A stretch of DNA of 64,000 nt from Escherichia coli. GTDB lineage: Bacteria; Pseudomonadota; Gammaproteobacteria; Enterobacterales; Enterobacteriaceae. A model generated the notes under the pieces. That model did no database searches and was not told the origin of the DNA. It saw only the letters and a list, made by a program, of their open reading frames with translations. Positions within the stretch are counted from its first letter, which is position 1; the number at the start of each line of letters is the position of its first letter. A program made the translations under genes and the position numbers. Of this stretch, positions 90 through 64,000 are shown in pieces. The stretch lies in the NCBI RefSeq assembly GCF_030013595.1, contig NZ_CP122770.1. One strand, written 5' to 3'.

Positions 90-506
90 TCAGTCATCTC
101 CGAACATATTTTCAGCGTTTCTTCTGGTCTGGTCTTCACCGTCATTTCTCGACAGACTCTGCTCTGTAAGAGGAGTACTGCAATCCACAGACGTATGGAG
201 ACCAGATTGTTTTTCCAGTAATTCAAGCAATTTCTTTTCAACCGAAAAAGCACCTGGTATCACGCTGGAAATCACCTTATTAATATCATCCAGAGTCGTA
301 TTTTCTGTCAGTAACTCCGATATCAGCAAAGGAAGACGTTTATCTATAGCTGCAAACGCCGCACCAGTAACTAACATCGCGCGCATGAAACGTCCCCGCT
401 CCTTCAGTTTTTCATTTGCAATGAGCTCATCTGCTATCTTATCTCCTGTCCGTTCATCCGGGAAAAGTTCAAATGAGCAGCGTCTGGATTTATTTTCATC
501 ACTCAT
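90..506 (-). CDS. parR: ParR/StbB-like centromere-binding adaptor of a type II (ParMR) partition system
   Basis: 138-aa ORF directly downstream of the ParM-like gene with a short start/stop overlap (499-506); N-terminal region follows the ParR(R1)/StbB(R100) pattern (..DKI..ERGR..RA.L..G...ELLT..TT..DI..). Confidence 0.6.
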   Translation of the reverse strand: MSDENKSRRCSFELFPDERTGDKIADELIANEKLKERGRFMRAMLVTGAAFAAIDKRLPLLISELLTENTTLDDINKVISSVIPGAFSVEKKLLELLEKQSGLHTSVDCSTPLTEQSLSRNDGEDQTRRNAENMFGDD

Positions 507-1478
507 TAGTCACACCACCTTTCATTTTTATCATTCCCATGACTAAATCAAACTGCGGGGATGAGCTCAGATAAAAGCGCTCATCAGGAACCTTAGTCAG
601 GTTCTTCACAGCCTCGGCCACAATTTCAGCCCCACCACCAACACACATTACATGTGTATAGTCGGTGAAACGGCTGATGACATCATTAACTCGTTTAATA
701 AGCAACTTCTGCCGTTCATTGATAACATTAATGATAGACTCACGCTGTTCAGCATTATAAATGCGACGGGAAAGGTAGTCAGGTTCATTACGGTGCACAA
801 TGATATTGTCAGCCTGGAATGAGCTCACTCTTGTATTAGCATGTACAGCCATCTGTTCCTTAACCCCGGATGTAATCAGGGACACGCCGATATTTGGATC
901 ACACCAGGTTTTTGTAATCCCTGTCATTTTGCTACGAACATGCGACACATCAAGAGTTGTACCACCGAGATCTACGATCAAAAGGGATTCATCATCCTCA
1001 AGCCCCGCAAGAACACTGAAACCAGCGGGAATACTTTCAGGAAGAACGGAAACACTGCGAATAACAAATGCATCACTCCCCTGCACCCGTACTTCACGCA
1101 TCACATTTTTTTCTTTCTTTCAATGTTTTGCTTATTTTTCTGATTGTTGGCGTCAAGGTATTCAGAGATCGGCAATGTGACGATGACATCAACAGGCTGC
1201 GCTTTCAGGCCGGTCTGCTGTAGCGCATGCTGAATGGCCACAACATTCACATCACTGTACTGATAGCGTGTTTCAGTCGTTACGACAGCATCAGCACTTA
1301 ATGGATCAAATGAAAACTTCTCGCCGTCGATCTCGTAATTAGCCGGGGCAGCATCATCCAGTAAACTAAAAGACCATTCCGGTTTAAAGCTGTTAGGGCT
1401 GATTAACGTTTTCACGTCACCATCCTCCAACCAGGCAAGTTTAATGTTGGTAGAACCATCATCAATAAAGATTTTCAT
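499..1478 (-). pseudogene. parM: ParM/StbA actin-like segregation ATPase, reading frame broken by a -1 shift in an A7 homopolymer
   Basis: N-terminal ORF ([16 protein letters not shown]..., start 1478 after GGAG RBS) ends ..NIERKKKM* at 1101; the C-terminal ORF continues in another frame (REVRVQGSDAF..LPESIPAGF..DLGGTTLD..). Both halves match ParM of R1 in order; adding one A to the run at 1106-1112 restores a roughly 326-aa protein. Confidence 0.75.
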
Positions 1479-1559
1479 AACCAGTCTCCGTTGCTCATAA
1501 ACAAATAGAAAAAACAAACATGCTTCATACATGCAATGTATATTCAATTATAATGAAAA

Positions 1560-1720
1560 AACGGTCTTTCTGAAAGGACAAATGCAACATAAAAACACGA
1601 TAAATTGCATGTACATTGTACACACAACTTTAAGACCAGAGGAAATCATAGATACAAAAACATTATGAAGGTTATATGTGATACATAAATGCAATATAAA
1701 AACATCGTGGACATCATGGT
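1560..1720. promoter_or_regulatory. parC-like centromere/promoter region upstream of parM with direct and inverted AATGCAAYATAAAAACA repeats
   Basis: Repeats AAATGCAACATAAAAACACGA (about 1580) and AAATGCAATATAAAAACATCG (about 1688) plus inverted ATTGCAT copies, in the position where ParMR systems carry parC. Confidence 0.4.
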
Positions 1721-1891
1721 TCAGGTTAGGGGAAAAGGAATGAAATGGTGAAACTGAGAGGAAAGGAAAGCGGTGACGAATCATGTCACCATAAACAGAA
1801 AGATGTCTAATGGGGACTCTTTAGGTACGTGAAGAATCCCCATAACGCATTTAAAAGACACACATCAGATACCCTTAAGGTATCCGATAGT

Positions 1892-2200
1892 TTATTGACC
1901 TATTGCACCATCACGTTCAAGCTTCTCTCTTATAGCCTCAATAATATATGAGCTAAAATCCAGAGATGTTTTACTGGTCGCTTTAAGTTCCGCATGAGCT
2001 TCAAAATACGACAGCGGTATGGCCTTAAGATTCTTAGCCTTCGTCCTGGCAGCCACGGGACGACCTGAAACTTCCTCTGCACCTTCATTTGGCTGAGACG
2101 GGGCTGTTGCTGTTACGGCAGAAGAAGAAGTTTGTAATCTGGCAGAATCCACCAGGTTTTTCAGTTTTTCAGCCTGTGCACTAAATTTCGCTTTGCTCAT
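1892..2200 (-). CDS. ParG-like small ribbon-helix-helix centromere-binding protein (partner of the ParA-type ATPase)
   Basis: 102-aa ORF immediately downstream of the ParA-like gene; C-terminal KAIPLSYFEAHAELKA..IIEAIREKL resembles an RHH fold; layout matches type Ib parFG/parAB operons. Confidence 0.5.
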   Translation of the reverse strand: MSKAKFSAQAEKLKNLVDSARLQTSSSAVTATAPSQPNEGAEEVSGRPVAARTKAKNLKAIPLSYFEAHAELKATSKTSLDFSSYIIEAIREKLERDGAIGQ

Positions 2201-2286
2201 GAGATAACCCAGGATGTTTGTTAGATACTTAAAAGATATCCATTAAAAGCCCAAAGGATACTATATGGATACCCAATAGACACACC

Positions 2287-2931
2287 TTACTGTTTGTTAT
2301 TTTCAATCAGATGATTGATTTCTTCGATCAGGGCAATAACTTCCTTACCTCCTGCCGAATAGCGCCCATGAACAGACTCAGTGATTCCCATCCCAGTCTC
2401 AATGACATCCTCAAATTCTGCACGAGCAGAAATGCGGCTCTTCATCAGCTTCAGATGTTTGAACGATGGCAGGATTGCATCAAGCTTAGGGAATTTCTTC
2501 TTGTTAGGATTAACTTTACAGAGATACAGGTGAGCAGTTATATCGGTCCCCATGATAGAGCTGATTTCGTCCAGTACTCCATCAAAATGCATCAAACCAA
2601 TACGTTCAGTCAGGGAGTCTTTTGAAGGGACAATAACGCAGTCTGCAAAGGCAATCGCAGTACGGGTAAGATCTGAGTCAAATCCCCCACAGTCAATAAG
2701 TAACGTCTTATCGCTGTTCTTGTAGGGAGTCATAATTTCGATTAACTCATCCACTGTTTTGGGTACTTTCACGGAAATTTCTTTTCCTTCAGGTCTCAGC
2801 CCCAGAATGATAGAAAGCCCGGTATGAGTATCCAGATCAACTGTATCAGACTTCATTTCACCAACAATGTTTACGGATGAAGTTGTCTTACCCACACCAC
2901 CTTTGGGATGCGTATTAGCAATAACAGGCAT
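2287..2931 (-). CDS. parA: ParA/ParF-family partition ATPase (small type Ib Walker-type ATPase)
   Basis: Deviant Walker A box KGGVGKTT near the N-terminus (MPVIANTHPKGGVGKTT), about 214 aa, GGAG RBS 9 nt upstream of the ATG at 2931. Confidence 0.85.
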   Translation of the reverse strand: MPVIANTHPKGGVGKTTSSVNIVGEMKSDTVDLDTHTGLSIILGLRPEGKEISVKVPKTVDELIEIMTPYKNSDKTLLIDCGGFDSDLTRTAIAFADCVIVPSKDSLTERIGLMHFDGVLDEISSIMGTDITAHLYLCKVNPNKKKFPKLDAILPSFKHLKLMKSRISARAEFEDVIETGMGITESVHGRYSAGGKEVIALIEEINHLIENNKQ

Positions 2932-2983
2932 AGTGTATCTCCAGAATCCACATGTAATACCCATAAAGCCCCCATAAGACACC

Positions 2984-3100
2984 TTTCGGATATCCAAGAG
3001 GTACTCAATAGATGTTTTTTTACTCTATACCGGTCCTGCATGTCAACAGAATATGAAATACCGATAATATATCCATGAGATATCCGAAAGGGATTTAAAA
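2984..3100. promoter_or_regulatory. GGATAYC-type repeats upstream of the ParA-like operon (candidate type Ib centromere/operator)
   Basis: CGGATATCCAAG (2990), ATATATCCATGAGATATCCGAAAG (3068-3090); related copies at 2232-2275 (AAGATATCC, GGATACTATATGGATACC) and 1879 (GGTATCCGATAG). Confidence 0.35.
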
Positions 3101-4873: not shown

Positions 4874-5131
4874 ATGGATCAGGAAATGACGTTTTCACTC
4901 AGCTATGAACAACTGACCCGGTTTGCGGAAAAACGCATCCGGGAATGCAATCTGGACAGCCAGGGCGCGATTTATCTCTGCGAGTCAGCCAAAGCCGGAG
5001 CCGTGCTGATCTTCTGGCATGAACTGGCCATAAATGGCTATGCCTCAATGAATGCCATAAAGAGACAGGAGCTCATTGACGCCGACTTTCAGCGCCTCAG
5101 AAACCTCATCTGGCCGGAGGATGACAGGTAA
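4874..5131 (+). CDS. Hypothetical 85-aa protein, first gene of a two-gene module
   Basis: ORF with GGAG RBS; its stop overlaps the start of the next gene (TAATGA at 5128-5133), suggesting translational coupling. Confidence 0.45.
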   Translation: MDQEMTFSLSYEQLTRFAEKRIRECNLDSQGAIYLCESAKAGAVLIFWHELAINGYASMNAIKRQELIDADFQRLRNLIWPEDDR

Positions 5132-5721
5132 TGACCCAGAGCCGCCGACCGTCGCCACTGCAGCGGAGAGTGCTGATTGTGCTGGCTGCCCTTGACGAAA
5201 AACGGCCGGGTCCCGTGCTGACGCGGGACCTGGAACGGGTGCTGGAGCGAAGCGGGGAAGCCCCGGTCTACGGGCCAAACCTGCGCGCCTCCTGCCGTCG
5301 TCTGGAGAATGCCGGCTGGCTGCGTACCCTGCGCGCTCCGAACCTGCAGCTGGCAGTGGAGCTGACGGACGCCGGCCGGGCCGTGGCACAGCCTCTGCTG
5401 CTGGCAGAACAGGACCGCCTCCGGGCAGAACAGCGTGCGGCAGAAGTCGTCGTACTGCCGCTGGTCCCGGCAGCAGGTCTGCCCGCAGACGGCACTTCTG
5501 CCACTGATCTGGCGGTGGAGCTGAACGGCATGACGTATCAGGCCTGCCGTGGGGATTTTGTGGTACGTCTCGACGGCAGCACCTGTCTGCAGTTATGGAA
5601 TAAAGAAGGCAGGGTGGTACGCCTGGAGGGCGATCCGCTGGAAGTGGCGCAGTGGCTGCAGGCCTGTCACGATGCCGGAATGGAGGTTCGTGTACAGGTT
5701 AATGAAAGCGTCACCCCGTAA
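5131..5721 (+). CDS. Hypothetical 196-aa protein with an N-terminal winged-helix-like DNA-binding region; markedly GC-rich
   Basis: N-terminal LQRRVLIVLAALDEKRPGPVLTRDLERVLERSG..RRLENAGWLRT resembles MarR/wHTH domains; GC content visibly higher than neighbouring genes. Confidence 0.5.
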   Translation: MTQSRRPSPLQRRVLIVLAALDEKRPGPVLTRDLERVLERSGEAPVYGPNLRASCRRLENAGWLRTLRAPNLQLAVELTDAGRAVAQPLLLAEQDRLRAEQRAAEVVVLPLVPAAGLPADGTSATDLAVELNGMTYQACRGDFVVRLDGSTCLQLWNKEGRVVRLEGDPLEVAQWLQACHDAGMEVRVQVNESVTP

Positions 5722-5738
5722 AAACATACCAGCACGGT

Positions 5739-5954
5739 TTACACGTTATCCCATGGTGGCAGCAGGTTAACTTTCCTGCGCCACCAGTGGAAAGAGGCCA
5801 TGAGCAGTCCGAACAAAAAACCACCCGTGATACTTATAATAATGGCCTCACCTGCCACCATTCCTGACGGCCCCCAGTAGATAAACCACATTGCACATCC
5901 CCAGGAAATGCCCCATAAGCTCCCCATCAACAGCGTGACCTGCCAGAACGGCAT
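5739..5954 (-). pseudogene. 3' portion of a small inner-membrane protein gene split by the IS66-family insertion
   Basis: 71-aa hydrophobic ORF abutting the IS end; after removing the IS and one copy of the target duplication, the minus-strand frame joins in phase with an upstream segment (..MDSKKMWRSNYA, ATG at 8759) to give a roughly 100-aa two-TM protein. Confidence 0.5.
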
Positions 5955-6048
5955 AAAGGGTAATGGCGGAAGCCGGATACCCAGCCGCCAGAGAATACGC
6001 AGAAGAGGAGGGGCATAAGTAAGCGGCTCGCCAGAACCGTATTGATAT

Positions 6049-7620
6049 TTACTGAGAGGTCAGATCAACTTTCCAGGGCAACAGATCGCGTACCCGGTTT
6101 GCCGGCCAATCCTGGATATGCTCAATGACGTAACGCAGCCATTTTTCTGGTTCCACATTGTTCAGACGGCATGTGCCGATCAGCGAGTACAACACCGCCG
6201 CATGTTCGCCACCGCTGTCGGAACCCGCGAAGAGCCAGTTTTTCCGGCCTACGGCCACTCCCCGTAAGGCGTTCTCTGCGATGTTGTTGTCGATTTCCAC
6301 CCAGCCATTACTGCAGTACACGTTCAGGGCCTCCCACTGTTTCAGCAGGTATGCGAACGCTTTTGCCGTATCCGAGTGACGCGACAGTGTTTTCATCTGT
6401 TCCTGTATCCAGTCATACAGTGACTGCATCAGTGGAGCCGCTCTGGCTTTTCTTGCTGCCAGACGCTGTTCTGCTGAACATCCCCGGACTTCTGCCTCGA
6501 TGACATACAGTTCACCGATACGCTGCAGGGCTTCCGTGGTGATGTCGGTTGGCACTCTTGCATGCACATCGTGGATTTTTCTCCGGGCATGGGCCATACA
6601 CGCGGCTTCCGTTATTCTGCCGGATTCGTATAACGCCCGGTAACCACCGTAAGCATCTGCCTGAAGCACACCGCTGTAACCGGCCAGGTGATTCTGTGGA
6701 TGGATACCTTTCCGGTCCGGGCTGTACGCGAACCAGACCGCCGGGGGCATCTGTGAACCGGCGTTACGGTCATCACGGACATAGACCCACAGCCGGGCAG
6801 TTCTTGTTTTACCACTGCCCGGCTCCTGGACCGGAACGGGGATATCATCCGCATGGACTTTACCGGGCATCAGCACATACTGGCGCAGCACGTCATACAG
6901 CGGCTCCAGCAGTTCAGCAACGGCACCGGTCCAGCGCCCCAGCGTGGCGCGGCTCAGTTCCACGCCCTGACGAAGGTATATTTCTGACTGGCGGTATAAC
7001 GGCAGATGGTCTGCATACTTCCCGGTGACGATATGAGCCAGAAGCCCCGCTCCGGCATAACTGCGTGCAATGGGTTTTGAAGGTACTGGTGCCTGCACGA
7101 TATGGTCGCACCGGCAACAGGCCAGTTTCGGACGTTGTGTTTCGATAACCTTAAAAGCGCTGCTGATAAGCTCCAGTTGCTCTGACACATCACACCCCAG
7201 AGGACTGAGGTCACCACCACAGGCCGGGCAGCATTCCTCTTCCGGCCGGATGACCCGGGTTTCACGGGGAAGTGAGGCCGGTAACGGCTTACGGGCTGAA
7301 GACTGGCGCAGGGCGGATGGCAGTACCGGGTCATATTGCTCATCCAGCGTTTCCGCCATTTCTTCCTGAAGTGCGCTGATTCGCTCCTGGGCTTCCTGTA
7401 TCTGCCGTTCGGTTTTAGCGCGAAGTTTTTCTGAGCTTTTACCGAACTGCATGCGCTGCAGTTTCGCAACCAGCGCCTTCAGCCGGTTGATTTCGGAAGC
7501 ATAAGCCGCCACCCGCTGTGAGAGCAGGCGGTTGTATTTCGCCATCTGGCGGATGGTGTCCTGTTGCGTCTGCAACAGTGCCCGCAGGCGGGCATTCTCA
7601 TGAGCAAGTGAGGTGTCCAT
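6049..7620 (-). CDS. tnpC: IS66-family transposase TnpC
   Basis: 523-aa protein with the zinc-finger-like CCPACGG..CCRCDH segment and conserved central and C-terminal regions typical of IS66 TnpC. Confidence 0.9.
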
Positions 7621-7639
7621 ATCCTCACTTTACAACGGG

Positions 7640-7987
7640 TTATATGCGGATGCCAGCGCGTTCCGTTCGTTTCGGGTGCTTCCAGTCGATGCCTTCGAGA
7701 AGCATGGACAACTGAGCCGGAGTAAGGTGAACCTTTCCATCGCGGGTGACCGGCCAGACGAAGCGGCCCCGCTCCAGGCGTTTGGTGAAGAGGCACAGTC
7801 CGTCACTGTCAGCCCACAGCACTTTTATCTGGTCACCCCGGCGTCCGCGGAAGATGAACAGATGCCCGGAGAACGGGTCATCCTTCAGGACGTTCTGAAC
7901 TTTTGAGGCCAGGCCGTTAAAGCCATTTCGCATATCGGTGATACCGGCAACCAGCCAGATACGCGAACCGGCAGGGAGAGATATCAT
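7640..7987 (-). CDS. tnpB: IS66-family accessory protein TnpB
   Basis: 115-aa ORF (MISLPAGSRIWLVAGITDMRNGFNGLA...) in the conserved middle position of IS66 elements. Confidence 0.85.
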   Translation of the reverse strand: MISLPAGSRIWLVAGITDMRNGFNGLASKVQNVLKDDPFSGHLFIFRGRRGDQIKVLWADSDGLCLFTKRLERGRFVWPVTRDGKVHLTPAQLSMLLEGIDWKHPKRTERAGIRI

Positions 7988-8637
7988 CAGTGGCTGCTCC
8001 CTTTCATTTCGCGGATAAGTGTCTGTAATAACGCCGGTGTCAGTTCACCTTTCAGCCTGAGAGTTCCGGCCGGCAGAACCAGCTCGCAGCACAGACTGTC
8101 TGGCAGTGTATTTATCTGTTCAGGTATCTGCACTGGTGCCGGGATTTTATTATCCGGCTCCGGAGTTAACGTCACGGGAAGTAGCGATGTTTCATGTTCG
8201 CCGGGCGGTTGCAGGCCACCGTTACGCCAGAGATGCCGCCAGTTAAAGAGCAGGTTATCGTTAATTCCATTCTCTCGAGCTATTTGTGCGACACAAGCAC
8301 CGGGTAAAAGAGTTTGCTGAACCAGTCTCCATTTAAACTCCGGTGAAAATCGGTTCCGGCGGGGTTTCTCTGCTTTCACAGGCTGAGTCACGGTCGGGGC
8401 TGAAGGGTATCGCCCCGGGAAAAGAGCCCGGGCCAGTTGCCCGCAGGAATATTCACCGGAAAGAGGCCAGTCAGTGAATACCTGGTGAAATCGCCTCACC
8501 AGAGAAAAAATGGCGGTTTTGCTGACACCGGTCTGCGCAGAAATGCGCGGGTACGACAGTGACTCGTCAAATCTCAGCTGTAGCACACGCAGGATCAATT
8601 CCGGATTGTCTGCCAGTACCGCTTTTCGTGCATTCAT
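7987..8637 (-). CDS. tnpA: IS66-family accessory protein TnpA (orf1)
   Basis: 216-aa ORF first in the IS66 operon; its stop overlaps the tnpB start; HTH-like N-terminus. Confidence 0.7.
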   Translation of the reverse strand: MNARKAVLADNPELILRVLQLRFDESLSYPRISAQTGVSKTAIFSLVRRFHQVFTDWPLSGEYSCGQLARALFPGRYPSAPTVTQPVKAEKPRRNRFSPEFKWRLVQQTLLPGACVAQIARENGINDNLLFNWRHLWRNGGLQPPGEHETSLLPVTLTPEPDNKIPAPVQIPEQINTLPDSLCCELVLPAGTLRLKGELTPALLQTLIREMKGSSH

Positions 8638-8926
8638 CTTAAATGTCCCTTTACTGCGAAAATGGACATTAGTATCGGAAACAGGAAAGGGAGGCGAAAG
8701 ACGGTTTAAATGAGACGGTTACGGGCATAATTGCTCCGCCACATCTTTTTGCTGTCCATCAGGGCAATGGCCCGGGCTTTTTTCTGCTCAAAGGTCACAG
8801 GAGCACCTCCGTTCCATGATGTAAACGTGACACAGCTTATTGTTATTGATTATTATTATCATGCTGTGGTTGTGTTGTCATGCATCAGTACACTGACAAA
8901 AGTGCAAAAGAAAGGAAAACAGGCAG

Positions 8927-9262
8927 ATGAACAGAAAATATTATTTTAATAATATGTGGTGGGGATGGGTGACGGGGGGATATATGCTGTATATGTCATG
9001 GGATTATGATTTTAAATACAGATTACTGTTCTGGTGTATTTCTCTCTGCGGAATGGTTTTGTATCCGGTTGCAAAATGGTATATTGAAGATACAGCTCTG
9101 AAATTTACCCGGCCTGATTTCTGGAACAGCGGTTTTTTTGCTGATACACCTGGGAAAATGGGATTGCTTGCTGTTTATACGGGTACTGTTTTCATATTAT
9201 CTCTTCCGTTAAGTATGATATATATTCTTTCTGTTATTATAAAAAGGCTGTCTGTAAGATAG
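8927..9262 (+). CDS. iia: Colicin Ia-type immunity protein (inner-membrane protein)
   Basis: 111-aa hydrophobic protein (MNRKYYFNNMWWGWVTGGYMLYMSWDY...) convergent with and immediately 3' of the colicin gene; the 111-aa length fits Ia rather than Ib immunity (from memory). Confidence 0.85.
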   Translation: MNRKYYFNNMWWGWVTGGYMLYMSWDYDFKYRLLFWCISLCGMVLYPVAKWYIEDTALKFTRPDFWNSGFFADTPGKMGLLAVYTGTVFILSLPLSMIYILSVIIKRLSVR

Positions 9263-9283: not shown

Positions 9284-11164
9284 TTAAATACCCCAGAACT
9301 TATTCGCTTTTTCCACAAGCGATTCATCAATCAGCGCACCGGTGACAGCCATCAGTAAACCATACCCGATAATGCCTAAAGCGCTTCCGGTAAGAATACT
9401 GAAGACCAGTGCAACAAGAGCCGTTGCGGCATTGCCTGCTATAATGGCTTCTGTTTTAACAAAAAGAGGACGCCAGTTCTCTGTCCGGACAGCCTTACCA
9501 AACTCAGTGATCCAGTCAGCAAGACTTGTAAATTTTCCTGCATATCCCAGTCCCCGACTGAATCTGTTCAGATTAGACGATATATCAGACAGCTTCACAG
9601 ACTCAAGGGCTGCGGCAATCGCTGCACGATCTTTTGCATTAATTTTTTTGTTAATGTCAGCCCGGTACTTTTCATACGTTTTTAATGCCTCTTCAACATT
9701 ACGTATTTTCTTCCCTTTAGCCTGCCCGGCCATCTCTCTGGCTAACTGCTCAGCTTTTGCACCATATTTTTCTGAAACTGATTTCAGGAACTCTGTTGTG
9801 AAATTAATTGCGTCTTTCGTTGCCTTCAGTTCATCCTGTTTTCTTTTCTCTTCCGCTATCTTCTGATTGATGCCGGCAAGCTGGTTACGGATATTCTCTT
9901 TTTCCTTCAACAGGGCATTAAGAGCGTCATTTGCATGCTTTTGCTCATTTGTTCTGGCACTGAGGTTATTTCTCGCCGAATTTACCGCAGATTCAGCAGA
10001 GGTGATTTTATTTCTGGCATCAAGCAATCGTTGCCGTAACTTATCCCATTCAGCAACTTCAGCATTATAAATTTTCTTGTCACCTTCCACATCCTCTGTC
10101 ACCACCGGATTCCGGTCATTCAGAATATTGCGTTTATAATCCAGACCGGAATGGGTCAGAAGATAATTCAGGTTTGCACGGTTATCGATGACTGCGCTGG
10201 TTGTGATTTTTATCGTACCGGCAAATCTCGGATCACCGCTCACAACAATAGAATGATTTGTTGATGAACGCCCCGGGAATTTTTCAGGGGAAACTATCGT
10301 TTTGCCGTCAGGCGTGTTTTTCTGTTGCGTCAGCTGTTGTTCAGCTCTGGTTAATGCATTACGGGCCGTGTTAAGCGATTCCGTCACTGAACTGAGTTTA
10401 TTCCGGGCCTCTGAAATGGCCCTGTCATTCCGTGTCTGCTGCCCGAGCAGACGGGCCTGTTGTGCATCAAGAACGGCAAGGGCTGCCCCGCCATTTTTTT
10501 CCAGCTCTGACAACCGCGTGTCCAGAATACCTTTTCTGCGCTCGTATTCAGCAAGCATATCAGCGGCCTTCTTGTCTGCGTTCTGCGCATCCTTCTGCCG
10601 TTTTTCAGCCTGTTCGATTAACGACCTGGCCTCCCGGGGAGATATACGAAGAGAATCAGCATCAGCAAACAGCATCCGGCTCTCTGTATGCAGCCGGAGG
10701 GCATCATATCCGGCGATTTCAGTACGGAATCCGTATTCTCTCAGCTCTGCCTGCAGGAGTCTGAACTCCTGTCGTGTAATATCAGCGGCATCTGCGTTTC
10801 CGGCACGGAGTGTTTTCAGTGTGTTTTCATCTTTTTCCCTTGCAGCAATCGCCGCAGAGAGGCGTTTTCCGGCTTCAGTACGCTTATTCTCATTCTCTTT
10901 CTGCTGCGCGCTGAGCGTGTTTTTGTACGCTGTGATTTCCTTGTCCCTTTTTTCGATATCACTTCGGGTTGGGGAATCATCAACCCACTCGTTTCCGCCC
11001 CAGATGGTTTTGTTCCCGAAGGAACTCCATGCAGGCGGGGTACCATGAAAGACATCGACACGTGGAGGGTTTACATAAATATCAACGGCCATAATTTCAT
11101 GGCCATCTGAATCATACCCCAGCGATTCTGCACCGGGATTTGTAATACGTACAGGGTCAGACAT
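9284..11164 (-). CDS. cia: Colicin Ia (or Ib) pore-forming bacteriocin, 626 aa
   Basis: Full-length match by recollection to colicin Ia/Ib: N-terminus MSDPVRITNPGAESLGYDSDGHEIMAVDIYVNPPRVDVFHG, long coiled-coil central region, C-terminal channel domain with hydrophobic hairpin ..AGNAATALVALVFSILTGSALGIIGYGLLMAVTGALIDESLVEKANKFWGI. Confidence 0.95.
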   Translation of the reverse strand: MSDPVRITNPGAESLGYDSDGHEIMAVDIYVNPPRVDVFHGTPPAWSSFGNKTIWGGNEWVDDSPTRSDIEKRDKEITAYKNTLSAQQKENENKRTEAGKRLSAAIAAREKDENTLKTLRAGNADAADITRQEFRLLQAELREYGFRTEIAGYDALRLHTESRMLFADADSLRISPREARSLIEQAEKRQKDAQNADKKAADMLAEYERRKGILDTRLSELEKNGGAALAVLDAQQARLLGQQTRNDRAISEARNKLSSVTESLNTARNALTRAEQQLTQQKNTPDGKTIVSPEKFPGRSSTNHSIVVSGDPRFAGTIKITTSAVIDNRANLNYLLTHSGLDYKRNILNDRNPVVTEDVEGDKKIYNAEVAEWDKLRQRLLDARNKITSAESAVNSARNNLSARTNEQKHANDALNALLKEKENIRNQLAGINQKIAEEKRKQDELKATKDAINFTTEFLKSVSEKYGAKAEQLAREMAGQAKGKKIRNVEEALKTYEKYRADINKKINAKDRAAIAAALESVKLSDISSNLNRFSRGLGYAGKFTSLADWITEFGKAVRTENWRPLFVKTEAIIAGNAATALVALVFSILTGSALGIIGYGLLMAVTGALIDESLVEKANKFWGI

Positions 11165-17928: not shown

Positions 17929-18005
17929 AAGCTGTCGCTTATGGCGGAGCGATTGTGCCGTGTATTTATACACTGCACAGGGTTGAATCTCTGGTACGGT
18001 TTCAT
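17916..18005 (-). CDS. repY: RepY leader peptide (29 aa), translationally coupled to repZ
   Basis: ATG at 18005, MKPYQRFNPVQCINTRHNRSAISDSLWQV, stop TGA at 17916-17918 overlapping the repZ 5' region, as expected for the IncI1 repY-repZ arrangement. Confidence 0.7.
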   Translation of the reverse strand: MKPYQRFNPVQCINTRHNRSAISDSLWQV

Positions 18006-18019
18006 TATACTTTACCCGT

Positions 18020-18091
18020 ATTCTGTGAGGCCCCCACTATCTTTCGTCGTTCCGCCAAGTTCGTAAGAAAGATAGTGGGGGTTTTCCTTTT
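18020..18091 (+). ncRNA. inc: Inc antisense RNA (replication-control countertranscript) with terminator hairpin
   Basis: Perfect 15-bp stem CCCCCACTATCTTTC / GAAAGATAGTGGGGG (18031-18081) with loop containing CCGCCAA (complement of the rep-mRNA rUUGGCG loop), followed by TTTTCCTTTT, on the strand opposite the rep mRNA leader. Confidence 0.55.
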
Positions 18092-18745: not shown

Positions 18746-19081
18746 TTTGACGCTTTTTTGTATGTTTTTTAAGCTGTTAGTTGACTCGGTGCGTTATACT
18801 AAGTACCCTTTACTGGTCACAGGCAAAACTGTGATCGGGCGTAGGAACCCGCGTAGTCATCGTCGGCGCAGAAGTTAATTTCTTCATTTGGCGTCGTTTT
18901 TTGCCATACCATAAAGACAGGAACTTGTATTTCTTGTCGTCATCTATGGTAGCTCAGGCGGGGCAGGCATTAGCCTGGCCGGTTTCCGATGACGCCGGTA
19001 TTCCTACCCCCGTCTGGGCTATCACCAATGAGCGTAGGAACTCGGTGATAGCGTTTTTAGTTGTCATCGGAGACCTTTGCT

Positions 19082-62371: not shown

Positions 62372-62459
62372 TGTTAGATACAGACTGTCTTTTCCCGCCC
62401 AGAGCAACCAACTCTGTAGCGGAACAGTAAAAAAGCCGACCTCACCAGTCGGTTTTTTT
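62372..62459 (+). ncRNA. Candidate small RNA unit 1 (promoter to intrinsic terminator, about 88 nt)
   Basis: Sigma70-like promoter TTGACA (62337-62342), 17-nt spacer, TAGAAT (62360-62365); hairpin CAGAG-caaccaa-CTCTG; terminator GCCGAC-ctcacca-GTCGG plus T7 (62435-62459). Confidence 0.35.
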
Positions 62460-62618
62460 ACATCTGTTGTTTCTGCAAATCCGCCCCACCATGCCTGTTA
62501 TACCGGGAAGACTCATGTTCTGGTTACCGTCATCACGACAGAAGTGTCGCCAGACAGTGCTAACCTGCGGATTACAAGGGTGGTTGTTATCAAATGAACA
62601 GAACACTATTATAAGAAC

Positions 62619-62705
62619 GTTAGCTGAAAAGAGATTTCCTCCAGTCAGGGCCACCAACTCTGTAACGGAACAGTAAGAAAACCGACCTCATCAGTCGGTT
62701 TTTTT
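62619..62705 (+). ncRNA. Candidate small RNA unit 2 (paralogue of unit 1)
   Basis: Promoter TTGTTA (62584-62589), 17-nt spacer, TATTAT (62607-62612); conserved 3' block CCACCAACTCTGTAACGGAACAGTAA and terminator (62681-62705). Confidence 0.3.
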
Positions 62706-62771
62706 ACATTTATTACTTCTGAGTAACGACAAGCTGTACGTAGCAAGCTCCCTCTGGCGTGGAGGACGTCA

Positions 62772-62915
62772 GCGGGCTACTATAATGTTGTCTAGGCATT
62801 ACAGTAGAGCCCTTGGTTGATTGATAGAACAATCTCCCGGGGCTTTCACAAACGCTTTCAGCTTACAGCCTCAAGCTCCCCACCGCGATTTTGACGACTT
62901 TCGTATTTTGCAACA
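62772..62915 (+). ncRNA. Toxin-less duplicate of the pnd antisense/leader region (putative orphan Sok/PndB-like antisense RNA)
   Basis: About 85 percent identical over roughly 150 bp to 63735-63900, including the promoter-in-hairpin GGGCTACTATAATG...CATTACAGTAGAGCCC; the minus strand has only a truncated 28-codon mok-like ORF and no hok-like ORF. Confidence 0.4.
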
Positions 62916-62990
62916 ATATCAGGTGGTCAGCCTTTCCCGTAAACTTATGGCATGTTGCATTAATCAGGTAGAACAAATTATCATTTTTAG

Positions 62991-63078
62991 CGTCAGTTAT
63001 AGACAGCTCTTTTCTGGTCAGAGTCATCAACTTTGTAGCGTAACAGTAAAAAAGCCGGCCTCACCAGTCGGTTTTTTT
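62991..63078 (+). ncRNA. Candidate small RNA unit 3 (paralogue of units 1 and 2)
   Basis: Promoter TTGCAT (62955-62960), 18-nt spacer, TATCAT (62979-62984); hairpin CAGAG-tcatcaa-CTTTG; terminator GCCGGCctcaccaGTCGG plus T7 (63053-63078). Confidence 0.35.
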
Positions 63079-63233
63079 ACGTCTTTTGTATCTGCAAAAT
63101 CCGCCCCGCCATGCCCGTCACACCGGGGAAACTCATGCTCTGAACCTGAACCAGCCATCTCAACTTTGCCGTCTTCTGAAAAAACTGGCACATTCAGTTC
63201 GATAACTACCCATAAATACAGAGAGAAAATCCG

Positions 63234-63485
63234 ATGTCAGAAAAGTGGAGTAAAGAATTCGACTCTTGCTTTCAGGTGGGGAGCATAGAAGAAATTGCCG
63301 ATGCTCTCGAGAAACGCAGCGGAAGCGAGGAAAACGCGTTAGCCATGCTGGCAATGACAGCCTTCACACTCATGACCCGACGTGGTATCTGCGAAATGCA
63401 GAACGTGGCCCCCGATGGCAAAGGCATTCGGCTGGAGCTAATCGGCTTCAGGGGAAATGAAACAATACCGGATACGCTTCATTGA
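63234..63485 (+). CDS. Hypothetical 83-aa protein
   Basis: ORF followed by hairpin GCGGCGGCAG-aaaacc-CTGCCGCCG (63523-63548) that could also terminate the convergent pnd transcript; RBS weak. Confidence 0.3.
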   Translation: MSEKWSKEFDSCFQVGSIEEIADALEKRSGSEENALAMLAMTAFTLMTRRGICEMQNVAPDGKGIRLELIGFRGNETIPDTLH

Positions 63486-63556
63486 AGAAGAAAGGGCGCA
63501 ATGAGGTCAGCCTTCGCAACAAAGCGGCGGCAGAAAACCTGCCGCCGTGTTGCCCG

Positions 63557-63709
63557 TTAACGTTTAACTTCGTAGGCTAACGTTGCCACAAGCACTGTGT
63601 TTCCCTGCTGGAGCCGGAGTACGCAAAGCGAATCCCTCACCATCCAGACAAAACACAGAATCGTCACACAGATGACGATTAACATCATTAAAAACGTTCG
63701 CTGTGGCAT
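63557..63709 (-). CDS. pndA: PndA, Hok/Gef-family type I toxin (50 aa)
   Basis: MPQRTFLMMLIVICVTILCFVWMVRDSLCVLRLQQGNTVLVATLAYEVKR, matching the Hok family TM helix, SLC motif and LAYE C-terminus; found by manual translation (below the ORF-track cut-off). Confidence 0.9.
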   Translation of the reverse strand: MPQRTFLMMLIVICVTILCFVWMVRDSLCVLRLQQGNTVLVATLAYEVKR

Positions 63710-63767
63710 CATAGCCCCTCCATTGCCTTACGGCGGTTATCGGGCTACTATAATGTTGTCGAAGCAT
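63564..63767 (-). CDS. pndC: PndC, Mok-like overlapping reading frame needed for pndA translation
   Basis: ORF in another frame overlapping nearly all of pndA and ending 7 nt before its stop; start taken at the internal ATG (63767) within the antisense target region; start uncertain (ORF-track ATG at 63848). Confidence 0.45.
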   Translation of the reverse strand: MLRQHYSSPITAVRQWRGYDATANVFNDVNRHLCDDSVFCLDGEGFALRTPAPAGKHSACGNVSLRS

Positions 63768-63815
63768 TACAGTAGAGCCCTTGGTTGATTGATAAAAAAA
63801 TCTCCAGGGGCTTTC
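63748..63815 (+). ncRNA. pndB: PndB/Sok-like antisense RNA with promoter embedded in a hairpin
   Basis: TATAAT at 63748-63753 on the strand opposite pndCA; predicted transcript overlaps the pndC start region and ends at stem CCCTTGG...CCAGGGG followed by CTTTCT. Confidence 0.45.
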
Positions 63816-64000
63816 TGCTGTATACCGTCCACAAAACGCTTTCGGCATACAGCCTCAAGCGCCCGCAGCTATTCTAACGACTTTCGTATCTGCAACAATC
63901 CTTTTATCACACGGCTAATTCCTCTGGTTAGCTCTTATCGCCTGCAAATAAATTTTTAACCTTTCCGTTTGATTTAAATTCCAGAAATGGAGACTTTGTC

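Follow-up and report, generated by a model that had tools for sequence, protein, structure and literature searches.

Insertion sequences of the IS66 family have imperfect terminal inverted repeats that begin with GTAAGCG in the ISfinder descriptions. One of them, IS679 of the EPEC plasmid pB171, was reportedly published by Han et al. in 2001 with a length of 2,704 bp. Another one, ISCro1, likewise gives an 8-bp duplication (PMC12115866). The IncI1 plasmids have taken up insertions in their backbone genes, such as an ISEcp1 unit in yagA of p628-CTXM, ISCro1 in pKHSB1 and IS66 in pEK204 (PMC4541600).

Here, we analyzed a window, meaning one whole 64-kb stretch of DNA, from an IncI1 colicin-Ia plasmid. 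An earlier note, made from its letters, had read an IS66-family insertion into a small membrane-protein gene. We conclude with a probability of about 95% that a copy of IS679 transposed into this plasmid, splitting a 115-aa DUF6404-family gene and duplicating 8 bp of the target, GGGCATAA. The event is ordinary and the element was already known.

Results

The element occupies 6019..8722 (2,704 bp) with its genes on the minus strand, and the window holds a single copy. BLAST alignments of the element to many other replicons break off exactly at query positions 301 and 3004, the equivalents of 6019 and 8722. Six independent copies fetched from elsewhere (L002–L007) share these ends with identical termini, each flanked by its own, different 8-bp duplication. 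The window element differs from the six by 1 nt (8296, synonymous). Hence, the boundaries given in the earlier note were exact.

Between the flanking repeats, the element begins with GTAAGCGG and finishes with GGTTAC, so that its ends, each read inward, are GTAAGCGG... and GTAACCGT.... The terminal inverted repeats are imperfect, matching at 17 of the 25 end bases. They are GTAAGCGGCTCGCCAGAACCGTATT at the tnpC-proximal end (6019..6043, plus strand), where the terminus is identical in L002–L007, and GTAACCGTCTCATTTAAACCGTCTT as read on the minus strand at the tnpA-proximal end (8698..8722). These ends agree with the IS66-type terminal repeats.

Three minus-strand genes make the element complete, and their products are identical to proteins of many other copies. 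The first is tnpA (7987..8637) for an accessory protein of 216 aa (NF038385, E 6e-85, 284 bits with a cut-off of 150; identical to WP_000993956.1). Its stop overlaps the start of tnpB (ATGA) at 7987, and tnpB (7640..7987) encodes a 115-aa accessory protein (NF033819, E 5e-38, 129 bits with a cut-off of 50; identical to WP_000624618.1). The start of tnpC (6049..7620) lies 20 nt past the tnpB stop, and its 523-aa product (identical to WP_000381442.1) is an IS66-type DDE transposase by the equivalog NF033517 (E 8e-143, 476 bits with a cut-off of 180; 5–386 of 387 model positions covered). These NCBIfam matches to all three proteins confirm the family assignment made earlier.

The element is flanked by two copies of GGGCATAA, at 6011..6018 and 8723..8730, whereas the empty-site plasmids have one copy only. 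They are the only two plus-strand occurrences in the 64-kb window. Chance repeats were rejected as their source, since two prescribed positions would share 8 bp by chance with a probability of about 1.5e-5. The duplication is 8 bp long also at all six other copies, so the identical direct repeats noted before are properly read as a target-site duplication.

The interrupted gene lies in two fragments on the minus strand. The 5′ fragment (8731..8798) holds codons 1–23, the last of them by its first two bases, and starts from GTG 8798 behind a GGAGG ribosome-binding site with a 6-base spacer. The 3′ fragment (5739..6018) begins with the third base of codon 23, extends through codon 115 and the stop, and holds both transmembrane helices. 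Removal of the element and one repeat joins 5739–6018 to 8731–8798 in a single continuous frame, as the earlier note had proposed.

This frame extends 13 conserved codons upstream of the MDSKK start, to GTG 8798, and conservation within the family includes the N-terminal residues. With this start and its ribosome-binding site, the protein is therefore 115 aa long, which is the length annotated by RefSeq in the intact plasmids. The earlier proposal of a two-helix membrane protein of about 100 aa was thus right in its two long hydrophobic helices and short in its length, the start being GTG 8798 and not that at MDSKK.

As they now stand, the 5′ fragment reads through the right-hand repeat (8723–8730) into the IS to make a 30-aa ORF (8706–8798). 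The first in-frame start in the 3′ fragment is ATG 5954, which opens the previously listed 71-aa ORF (5739–5954) and has no obvious ribosome-binding site. Neither the 30-aa nor the 71-aa product was on record by exact look-up, which is a weak negative as such short ORFs are seldom called. For annotation, the two ORFs are the halves of one IS679-interrupted DUF6404 pseudogene rather than genes.

The rebuilt protein matches Pfam PF19942 (DUF6404) with an E value of 2.3e-36 and 125 bits, query 1–114 aligning to model 1–114 of 115. It is residue-for-residue identical to a public protein found on 64 contigs, and the intact gene carries the RefSeq name "DUF6404 family protein". Hence, the gene was rightly called one of unknown function, but its family does have a name. 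The protein carries all 31 residues invariant in DUF6404, by construction of the alignment. Its hydrophobic helices span residues 47–71 and 78–106 (AlphaFold pLDDT 90.6), and the N-terminal 45 residues hold nine K+R against two D+E.

Searches with the protein gave no match in NCBIfam, in PADLOC or among the PDB sequences, and Foldseek with the AlphaFold model against the PDB returned nothing better than E 4.8. In PHROGs, the only match was phrog_31022 (E 9e-38), a phage family of unknown function, and no paper in the library searched names DUF6404. Homologues at 55–61% identity sit in unrelated neighborhoods, a Klebsiella chromosome, a Xenorhabdus prophage and a Salmonella plasmid, and no neighbor gene is shared across these three. 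From this anatomy and distribution, our best guess is a stand-alone inner-membrane protein, with a basic cytoplasmic N-terminal domain followed by a helical hairpin, encoded by an accessory gene of plasmids and prophages.

Many independent truncated or frameshifted DUF6404 alleles occur in the public assemblies, their breaks ranging from residue 51 to residue 107. For some of them, the break may come from the end of a contig or from a mistake in sequencing or assembly. As a counterpoint to neutrality, the intact form heavily outnumbers every other allele, with 1,842 member sequences in its cluster, and the gene is thus retained as a rule.

The uninterrupted junction is present as one continuous match in 1,094 PLSDB plasmids, where an annotated DUF6404 family protein adjoins the colicin Ia immunity gene. 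These IS-free relatives span different backbones (IncI1, IncFIA/FIB) and genera and have the continuous ORF that the earlier note had predicted. The empty site is thus the common state in related plasmids. When the IS and one repeat copy are taken out, the window matches two sibling IncI1 contigs (L009 and L015) over 16,087 bp with no mismatch. Their only indel is in an A-run about 5 kb from the junction, and this near-identity accords with the recent insertion suggested before.

The same insertion was sought with a 3.3-kb region, consisting of the IS and its flanks, in 72,556 PLSDB plasmids and 5,426 complete E. coli genomes, and no record extends past the IS. Among the best matches, the element itself occurs abundantly in E. 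coli associated with pigs. It can be multicopy, and some pig isolates have it at as many as about 10 places on one chromosome. A similar kind of IS event is seen nearby in three sibling loci (L011, L013 and L014).

On the other side of the insertion lie the colicin Ia genes. The immunity gene iia (8927..9262, plus strand, 111 aa), annotated in the intact relatives, is divergent from the DUF6404 gene. The structural gene cia (9284..11164, minus strand, 626 aa) is identical to that of the sibling loci, which carries PF11504 (Colicin_Ia) and PF01024. A promoter-like site precedes each of the divergent genes, GTGACA-18-TATTAT for iia (8827..8856, plus strand) and, by consensus match only, ATGACA-18-AATAAT for DUF6404 (8852..8881, minus strand). 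Both lie to the right of 8722. A scan for SOS boxes (CTGT-N8-ACAG with at most one mismatch) found no site in the intergenic 8799–8926. As it flagged none just upstream of cia either, the scan says nothing on co-regulation with the colicin.

Discussion

The locus is best explained by a single transposition. An active IS679 copy with tnpA-tnpB-tnpC would have jumped into the IncI1 colicin-Ia plasmid and landed in codons 23–26 of the 115-aa DUF6404-family gene with its two transmembrane helices, and the transposition would have doubled 8 bp of the target. The insertion is real, derived and recent, because a public protein equals the rebuilt one, over 1,000 plasmids are uninterrupted at the site and the siblings are near-identical. 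It would also show that IS679 has recently been active in the source lineage. An indirect sign of such mobility is the presence of occupied versus empty sites in otherwise identical plasmids and of many identical copies at different sites.

The interrupted allele is almost certainly null, judging from the reading frames, because the element sits in codons N-Y-A-P within the family's invariant motif S-N-Y-A-P-P-L-L. From the DUF6404 promoter, the first 25 codons would run on into the IS, where the frame closes at 30 aa, and the remaining 90 codons would be cut off from the start and ribosome-binding site. In principle, the 71-aa product with both helices could be made from ATG 5954 if transcripts leave the IS. 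The DUF6404 gene is codirectional with tnpA, so transcripts that start at its promoter and read through may raise the transposase expression. In the other direction, the predicted immunity-gene promoter lies outside the IS and is not disturbed, so it and the colicin Ia and immunity genes should be unaffected.

The insertion is probably neutral or near-neutral to the plasmid, because the public assemblies contain the DUF6404 gene with truncations or frameshifts at many further positions. The same disruptions could reflect recurrent selection for loss, if the plasmid or host gains from the loss of DUF6404 or if the IS alters its neighbors, namely the colicin immunity gene and the downstream 196-aa and 85-aa genes. 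IS elements are able to create outward or hybrid promoters, and expression changes have been reported for the related ISCro1 together with IS1 (PMC8764528). Selection is nonetheless improbable here. The scattered truncations are equally well explained by relaxed selection, the intact allele predominates, and the insertion appears in no other record of PLSDB or the complete E. coli genomes and thus has not spread. Moreover, the predicted iia promoter is outside the IS, and the genes that follow the 3′ fragment are encoded on the other strand.

Misplacement of a true IS679 copy from elsewhere in the genome into the DUF6404 locus by the assembly is very improbable, even though the element can be multicopy, repeats are the usual cause of misassembly and a homopolymer frameshift at about 1105–1111 of the window hints at imperfect consensus quality. 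A misjoin would not yield a perfect 8-bp duplication with both junctions base-exact, which is the signature of true IS66-family transposition as in six of six other copies, and the window has a single copy of the element. It is hardly credible that the interrupted state is ancestral and the empty sites came from precise excision, a reading for which we found nothing specific. The empty site is in more than 1,000 plasmids of varied backbones and genera and the interrupted one in none of them, while the siblings differ from the window by the IS only, besides the one A-run indel. Each excision would also have to take one repeat copy precisely, and precise excision of this kind is a rare event. 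Thus, a recent insertion of IS679 is retained as the explanation.

A colicin accessory role was considered for DUF6404 because of its gene position. As a lysis or immunity accessory gene it was rejected, as its homologues at 55–61% identity sit without colicin genes and the protein has no match in NCBIfam, PADLOC, the PDB sequences or the PDB folds. Its position, divergent from the immunity gene, is fixed in both IncI1 and IncF colicin-Ia plasmids, and no lysis or release gene is known for colicins Ia and Ib. There is therefore a slim chance that DUF6404 works together with the colicin Ia module in release, auxiliary immunity or phage/plasmid exclusion. If so, the natural IS679 knock-out would be a ready-made mutant with a measurable phenotype.

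Beyond annotation, the importance is small with a modest use as a natural knock-out. The plasmid and its near-identical intact siblings make an isogenic pair for probing DUF6404, a membrane protein widespread on mobile elements. The insertion is also a useful strain-level marker, because it is absent from all the PLSDB plasmids and complete E. coli genomes searched.

Among the known elements, ISCro1 was considered first. This IS66-family element of 2,699 bp, known from Citrobacter rodentium and from E. coli plasmids including pCT, has the same architecture and ends, its end in pCT being 96% identical to the last 24 bp of the window element. It was rejected under a same-IS threshold of 95% nucleotide identity or more along the whole reference. 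The identity is 94.0% over IS positions 1–2286 only (85% of the length; tnpC, tnpB and the 3′ part of tnpA), and the pCT copy has no DNA-level alignment to positions 2287–2680 in the 5′ part of tnpA. Thus, the overall similarity is lower than is customary for two copies of one IS. The RefSeq names also differ, "ISCro1 family" for the transposase of pCT and "IS66 family" only for that of the window.

IS679 is like the window element in its length (2,704 bp as reportedly published), in having the three genes tnpA, tnpB and tnpC, in its imperfect terminal repeats of about 25 bp and in its 8-bp target duplication. The two were compared through the copy of plasmid KY471146 (match H39), which is about 100% identical to the window element, and no difference was detected; from the commonest copies, one synonymous base (8296) sets it apart. 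The KY471146 element is listed as IS679 (PMC5812201). By way of that one paper's table and the reported length, the window element can provisionally be named IS679.

Compared with the insertions described in IncI1 plasmids (PMC4541600), this one is likewise a single IS that sits as an accessory module in a dispensable backbone gene close to the replication and colicin region. It differs from them in target gene and position.

Results

The element and its boundaries

The insertion in the DUF6404 gene (Pfam PF19942) is an IS66-family element, as the earlier note had claimed, with all three of its minus-strand ORF products above the cut-offs of NCBIfam equivalogs. These are an IS66-like TnpA of 216 aa (8637-7987; 284 bits, cut-off 150), a TnpB of 115 aa whose start overlaps the TnpA ORF stop (7987-7640; 129 bits, cut-off 50) and an IS66-family transposase of 523 aa (7620-6049; 476 bits, cut-off 180). 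The window TnpA, TnpB and TnpC are identical to WP_000993956.1, WP_000624618.1 and WP_000381442.1. The element spans 6019-8722 (2,704 bp), starts with GTAAGCGG and ends with GGTTAC; these termini form imperfect inverted repeats, in which 17 of the first 25 bases match. The direct repeat GGGCATAA brackets it at 6011-6018 and 8723-8730 and occurs nowhere else on the plus strand of the window, which holds one copy of the IS.

The boundaries and the identical 8-bp repeats, both noticed earlier, recur elsewhere. When the element was used as a query together with 300 bp on either side, it hit hundreds of replicons in PLSDB and the complete E. coli genomes, many of them matching exactly at query 301-3004, that is window 6019-8722, with 99.9–100% identity. 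Six copies and their flanking sequence were retrieved, from plasmids (IncHI2, IncF and others) and from one chromosome. All six end at the same termini, and the 8-bp direct repeats that flank them differ in sequence from copy to copy. The window copy differs from them at one base, 8296, synonymously.

Full-length copies are present in 290 of 5,426 complete E. coli genomes. The best-matching IS-bearing genomes are mostly of pig isolates (ETEC, O139:H1; Japan, Belgium, China, France), and the best-matching records have up to about 10 IS places per chromosome.

The interrupted gene

Once the IS and one repeat copy (6019-8730) are taken out, the minus-strand frames fuse into a single ORF that begins at GTG 8798 and ends with the stop codon 5739-5741. 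The in-frame rejoining and the continuous protein thus stand as previously described, but the length is 115 aa rather than about 100 aa and the start is not ATG 8759 (MDSKK). GGAGG lies upstream of the GTG with a spacer of 6 bases. The longer form is correct, because the 13 residues before MDSKK are conserved family-wide (F3, E4, K7, R9, A10, A12) and the RefSeq CDS in intact plasmids has 348 nt, or 115 codons and a stop. Across its full length the rebuilt protein fits PF19942 (E 2.3e-36), and an exact look-up finds it on record as "MULTISPECIES: DUF6404 family protein [Enterobacteriaceae]" in 64 contigs, while its 90%-identity cluster holds 1,842 member sequences.

Empty sites

An insertion would be contradicted, according to the earlier note, by IS-free relatives having no continuous ORF across the junction. 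When the uninterrupted site was reconstructed as a 600-bp query, it matched 2,365 PLSDB plasmids, 1,094 of them in a single continuous place that spans 80% or more of its length. The top matches have 99.3% identity across all 600 bp and are annotated with a DUF6404 family protein adjoining the colicin 1A immunity protein, an arrangement found on IncI1 and IncFIA/FIB backbones. No occupied site was found in PLSDB plasmids or complete RefSeq E. coli genomes.

Sibling IncI1 contigs encoding the exact DUF6404 allele were retrieved. The window without the IS and one repeat copy aligns with two of them, L009 and L015, over 16,087 bp with 0 mismatches and a single 1-bp indel in the A-run at ~1105-1111, ~5 kb from the junction. 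Judged by the earlier note's own test, these results favour the insertion reading. The insertion is the derived state and recent, as its intact repeats had suggested.

A StbA/ParM-like partition gene (499-1547, minus strand) is split into ORFs of 148 and 201 aa in the window, and is a single 326-aa ORF in L009. The split is due to the T run at 1105-1111, which is one base shorter in the window (7 vs 8), the sole L009 difference in 16 kb; it may reflect either a true frameshift or an error in sequencing the homopolymer.

The surrounding region

At 4874-5721, two co-oriented plus-strand ORFs of 85 and 196 aa overlap by ATGA at 5131, and their G+C content is 61%, compared with 48% in the window as a whole. 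They match no NCBIfam family and have a weak PHROG match alone (phrog_19460, E 4e-7), and they travel with DUF6404, iia and cia on IncI1 and IncFIA/FIB plasmids (locus L001). Other mobile insertions lie nearby in three near-identical IncI1 contigs: an IS3-family element (L011, ~5047-6275), a different IS66-family element with a 512-aa TnpC and a 126-aa TnpA that cuts a 448-aa yagA-like gene (L013, 4138-6450), and a group II intron reverse transcriptase (L014, 18979-end). The replicon-to-colicin region seems to tolerate insertions. Rfam gathering-level matches in the window, at 18942-19029 (plus strand), 17941-18089 (minus strand) and 62374-63864, include a repZ pseudoknot (194.5 bits), which confirms an IncI1-type replicon, a C4 antisense RNA (77.5 bits) ~0.9 kb from it, two sok antitoxin RNAs (131.7 and 67.5 bits) and two AgrB antisense RNAs.

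Discussion

The duplicated target corresponds to coding nucleotides 69-76 in codons 23-26 (N-Y-A-P), within the invariant family block S22-N-Y-A-P-P-L-L29. The 5′ piece runs on into the IS, where a stop codon closes it at 30 aa. The 3′ piece holds both hydrophobic helices, and its first start codon is ATG 5954, before which a reading of the sequence and ORFs found no Shine-Dalgarno-like sequence. The interrupted allele is therefore regarded as almost certainly null. Promoter-like sites lie at 8881-8852 (minus strand) for the DUF6404 gene and at 8827-8856 for the divergent colicin Ia immunity gene, the latter site and the colicin gene being outside the IS. The DUF6404 and IS genes have the same direction, so transcription from the former site would enter tnpA.

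The two-helix membrane protein proposed earlier is also predicted here. The AlphaFold model is confident (pLDDT 90.6, pTM 0.78) and, with hydropathy, gives short N-terminal helices at 3-16, 19-22 and 27-34, then long hydrophobic ones at 47-71 and 78-106. There are 9 K+R and 2 D+E among the N-terminal 45 residues, and the C-terminal tail is basic too, so the positive-inside rule would place both termini in the cytoplasm. Neither NCBIfam nor PADLOC matched the protein, the PDB held no relative by sequence or by fold (top Foldseek E 4.8), no paper on DUF6404 was found in the literature searched, and the family is also a PHROG of unknown function.

Homologues of 55–61% identity occupy unrelated contexts, namely a Klebsiella chromosomal locus, a Xenorhabdus prophage accessory region and a Salmonella plasmid, there adjoining clpP-like and hns-like genes. 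Therefore, its behaviour is that of a stand-alone accessory gene carried by mobile elements and not that of a fixed component of colicin operons. Dozens of public-assembly clusters at least 85% identical to the IncI1 gene (P0028-P0134) break off at residues 51-107 with tails from its other reading frames (frameshifts) or foreign sequence, none of them at the window's insertion site. They point to frameshifts, insertions and rearrangements that arose repeatedly and independently in this small gene, and suggest that its loss is frequent and does no harm, though some may be assembly artefacts.

The finding from the sequence alone is real and was correctly interpreted. The insertion itself is ordinary, with a known IS, a known uncharacterised gene family, a very common plasmid type and textbook transposition signatures. 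It serves correct annotation and as a lineage marker, and makes a natural DUF6404 knock-out paired with near-identical intact siblings.

As to its name, IS679 was reportedly described by Han and colleagues in 2001 as 2,704 bp with 25-bp imperfect repeats and an 8-bp duplication, and its transposition is said to need all three ORFs. The 47,038-bp plasmid KY471146 (H39), which is listed as a carrier of IS26, IS679 and ISApl1 (PMC5812201), matches the window IS at 100.0%. Because of this match and the published description, we would call the window element IS679, a name taken via the KY471146 listing. ISCro1 was the initial candidate and was dropped. Its copy in plasmid pCT (2,699 bp; ISCro1-family transposase in RefSeq) has 94.0% identity with the window IS at IS positions 1-2286 and 96% in the last 24 bp, but the 5′ portion of tnpA (positions 2287-2680) is unalignable. 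Thus, ISCro1 is a close relative and not the same element.
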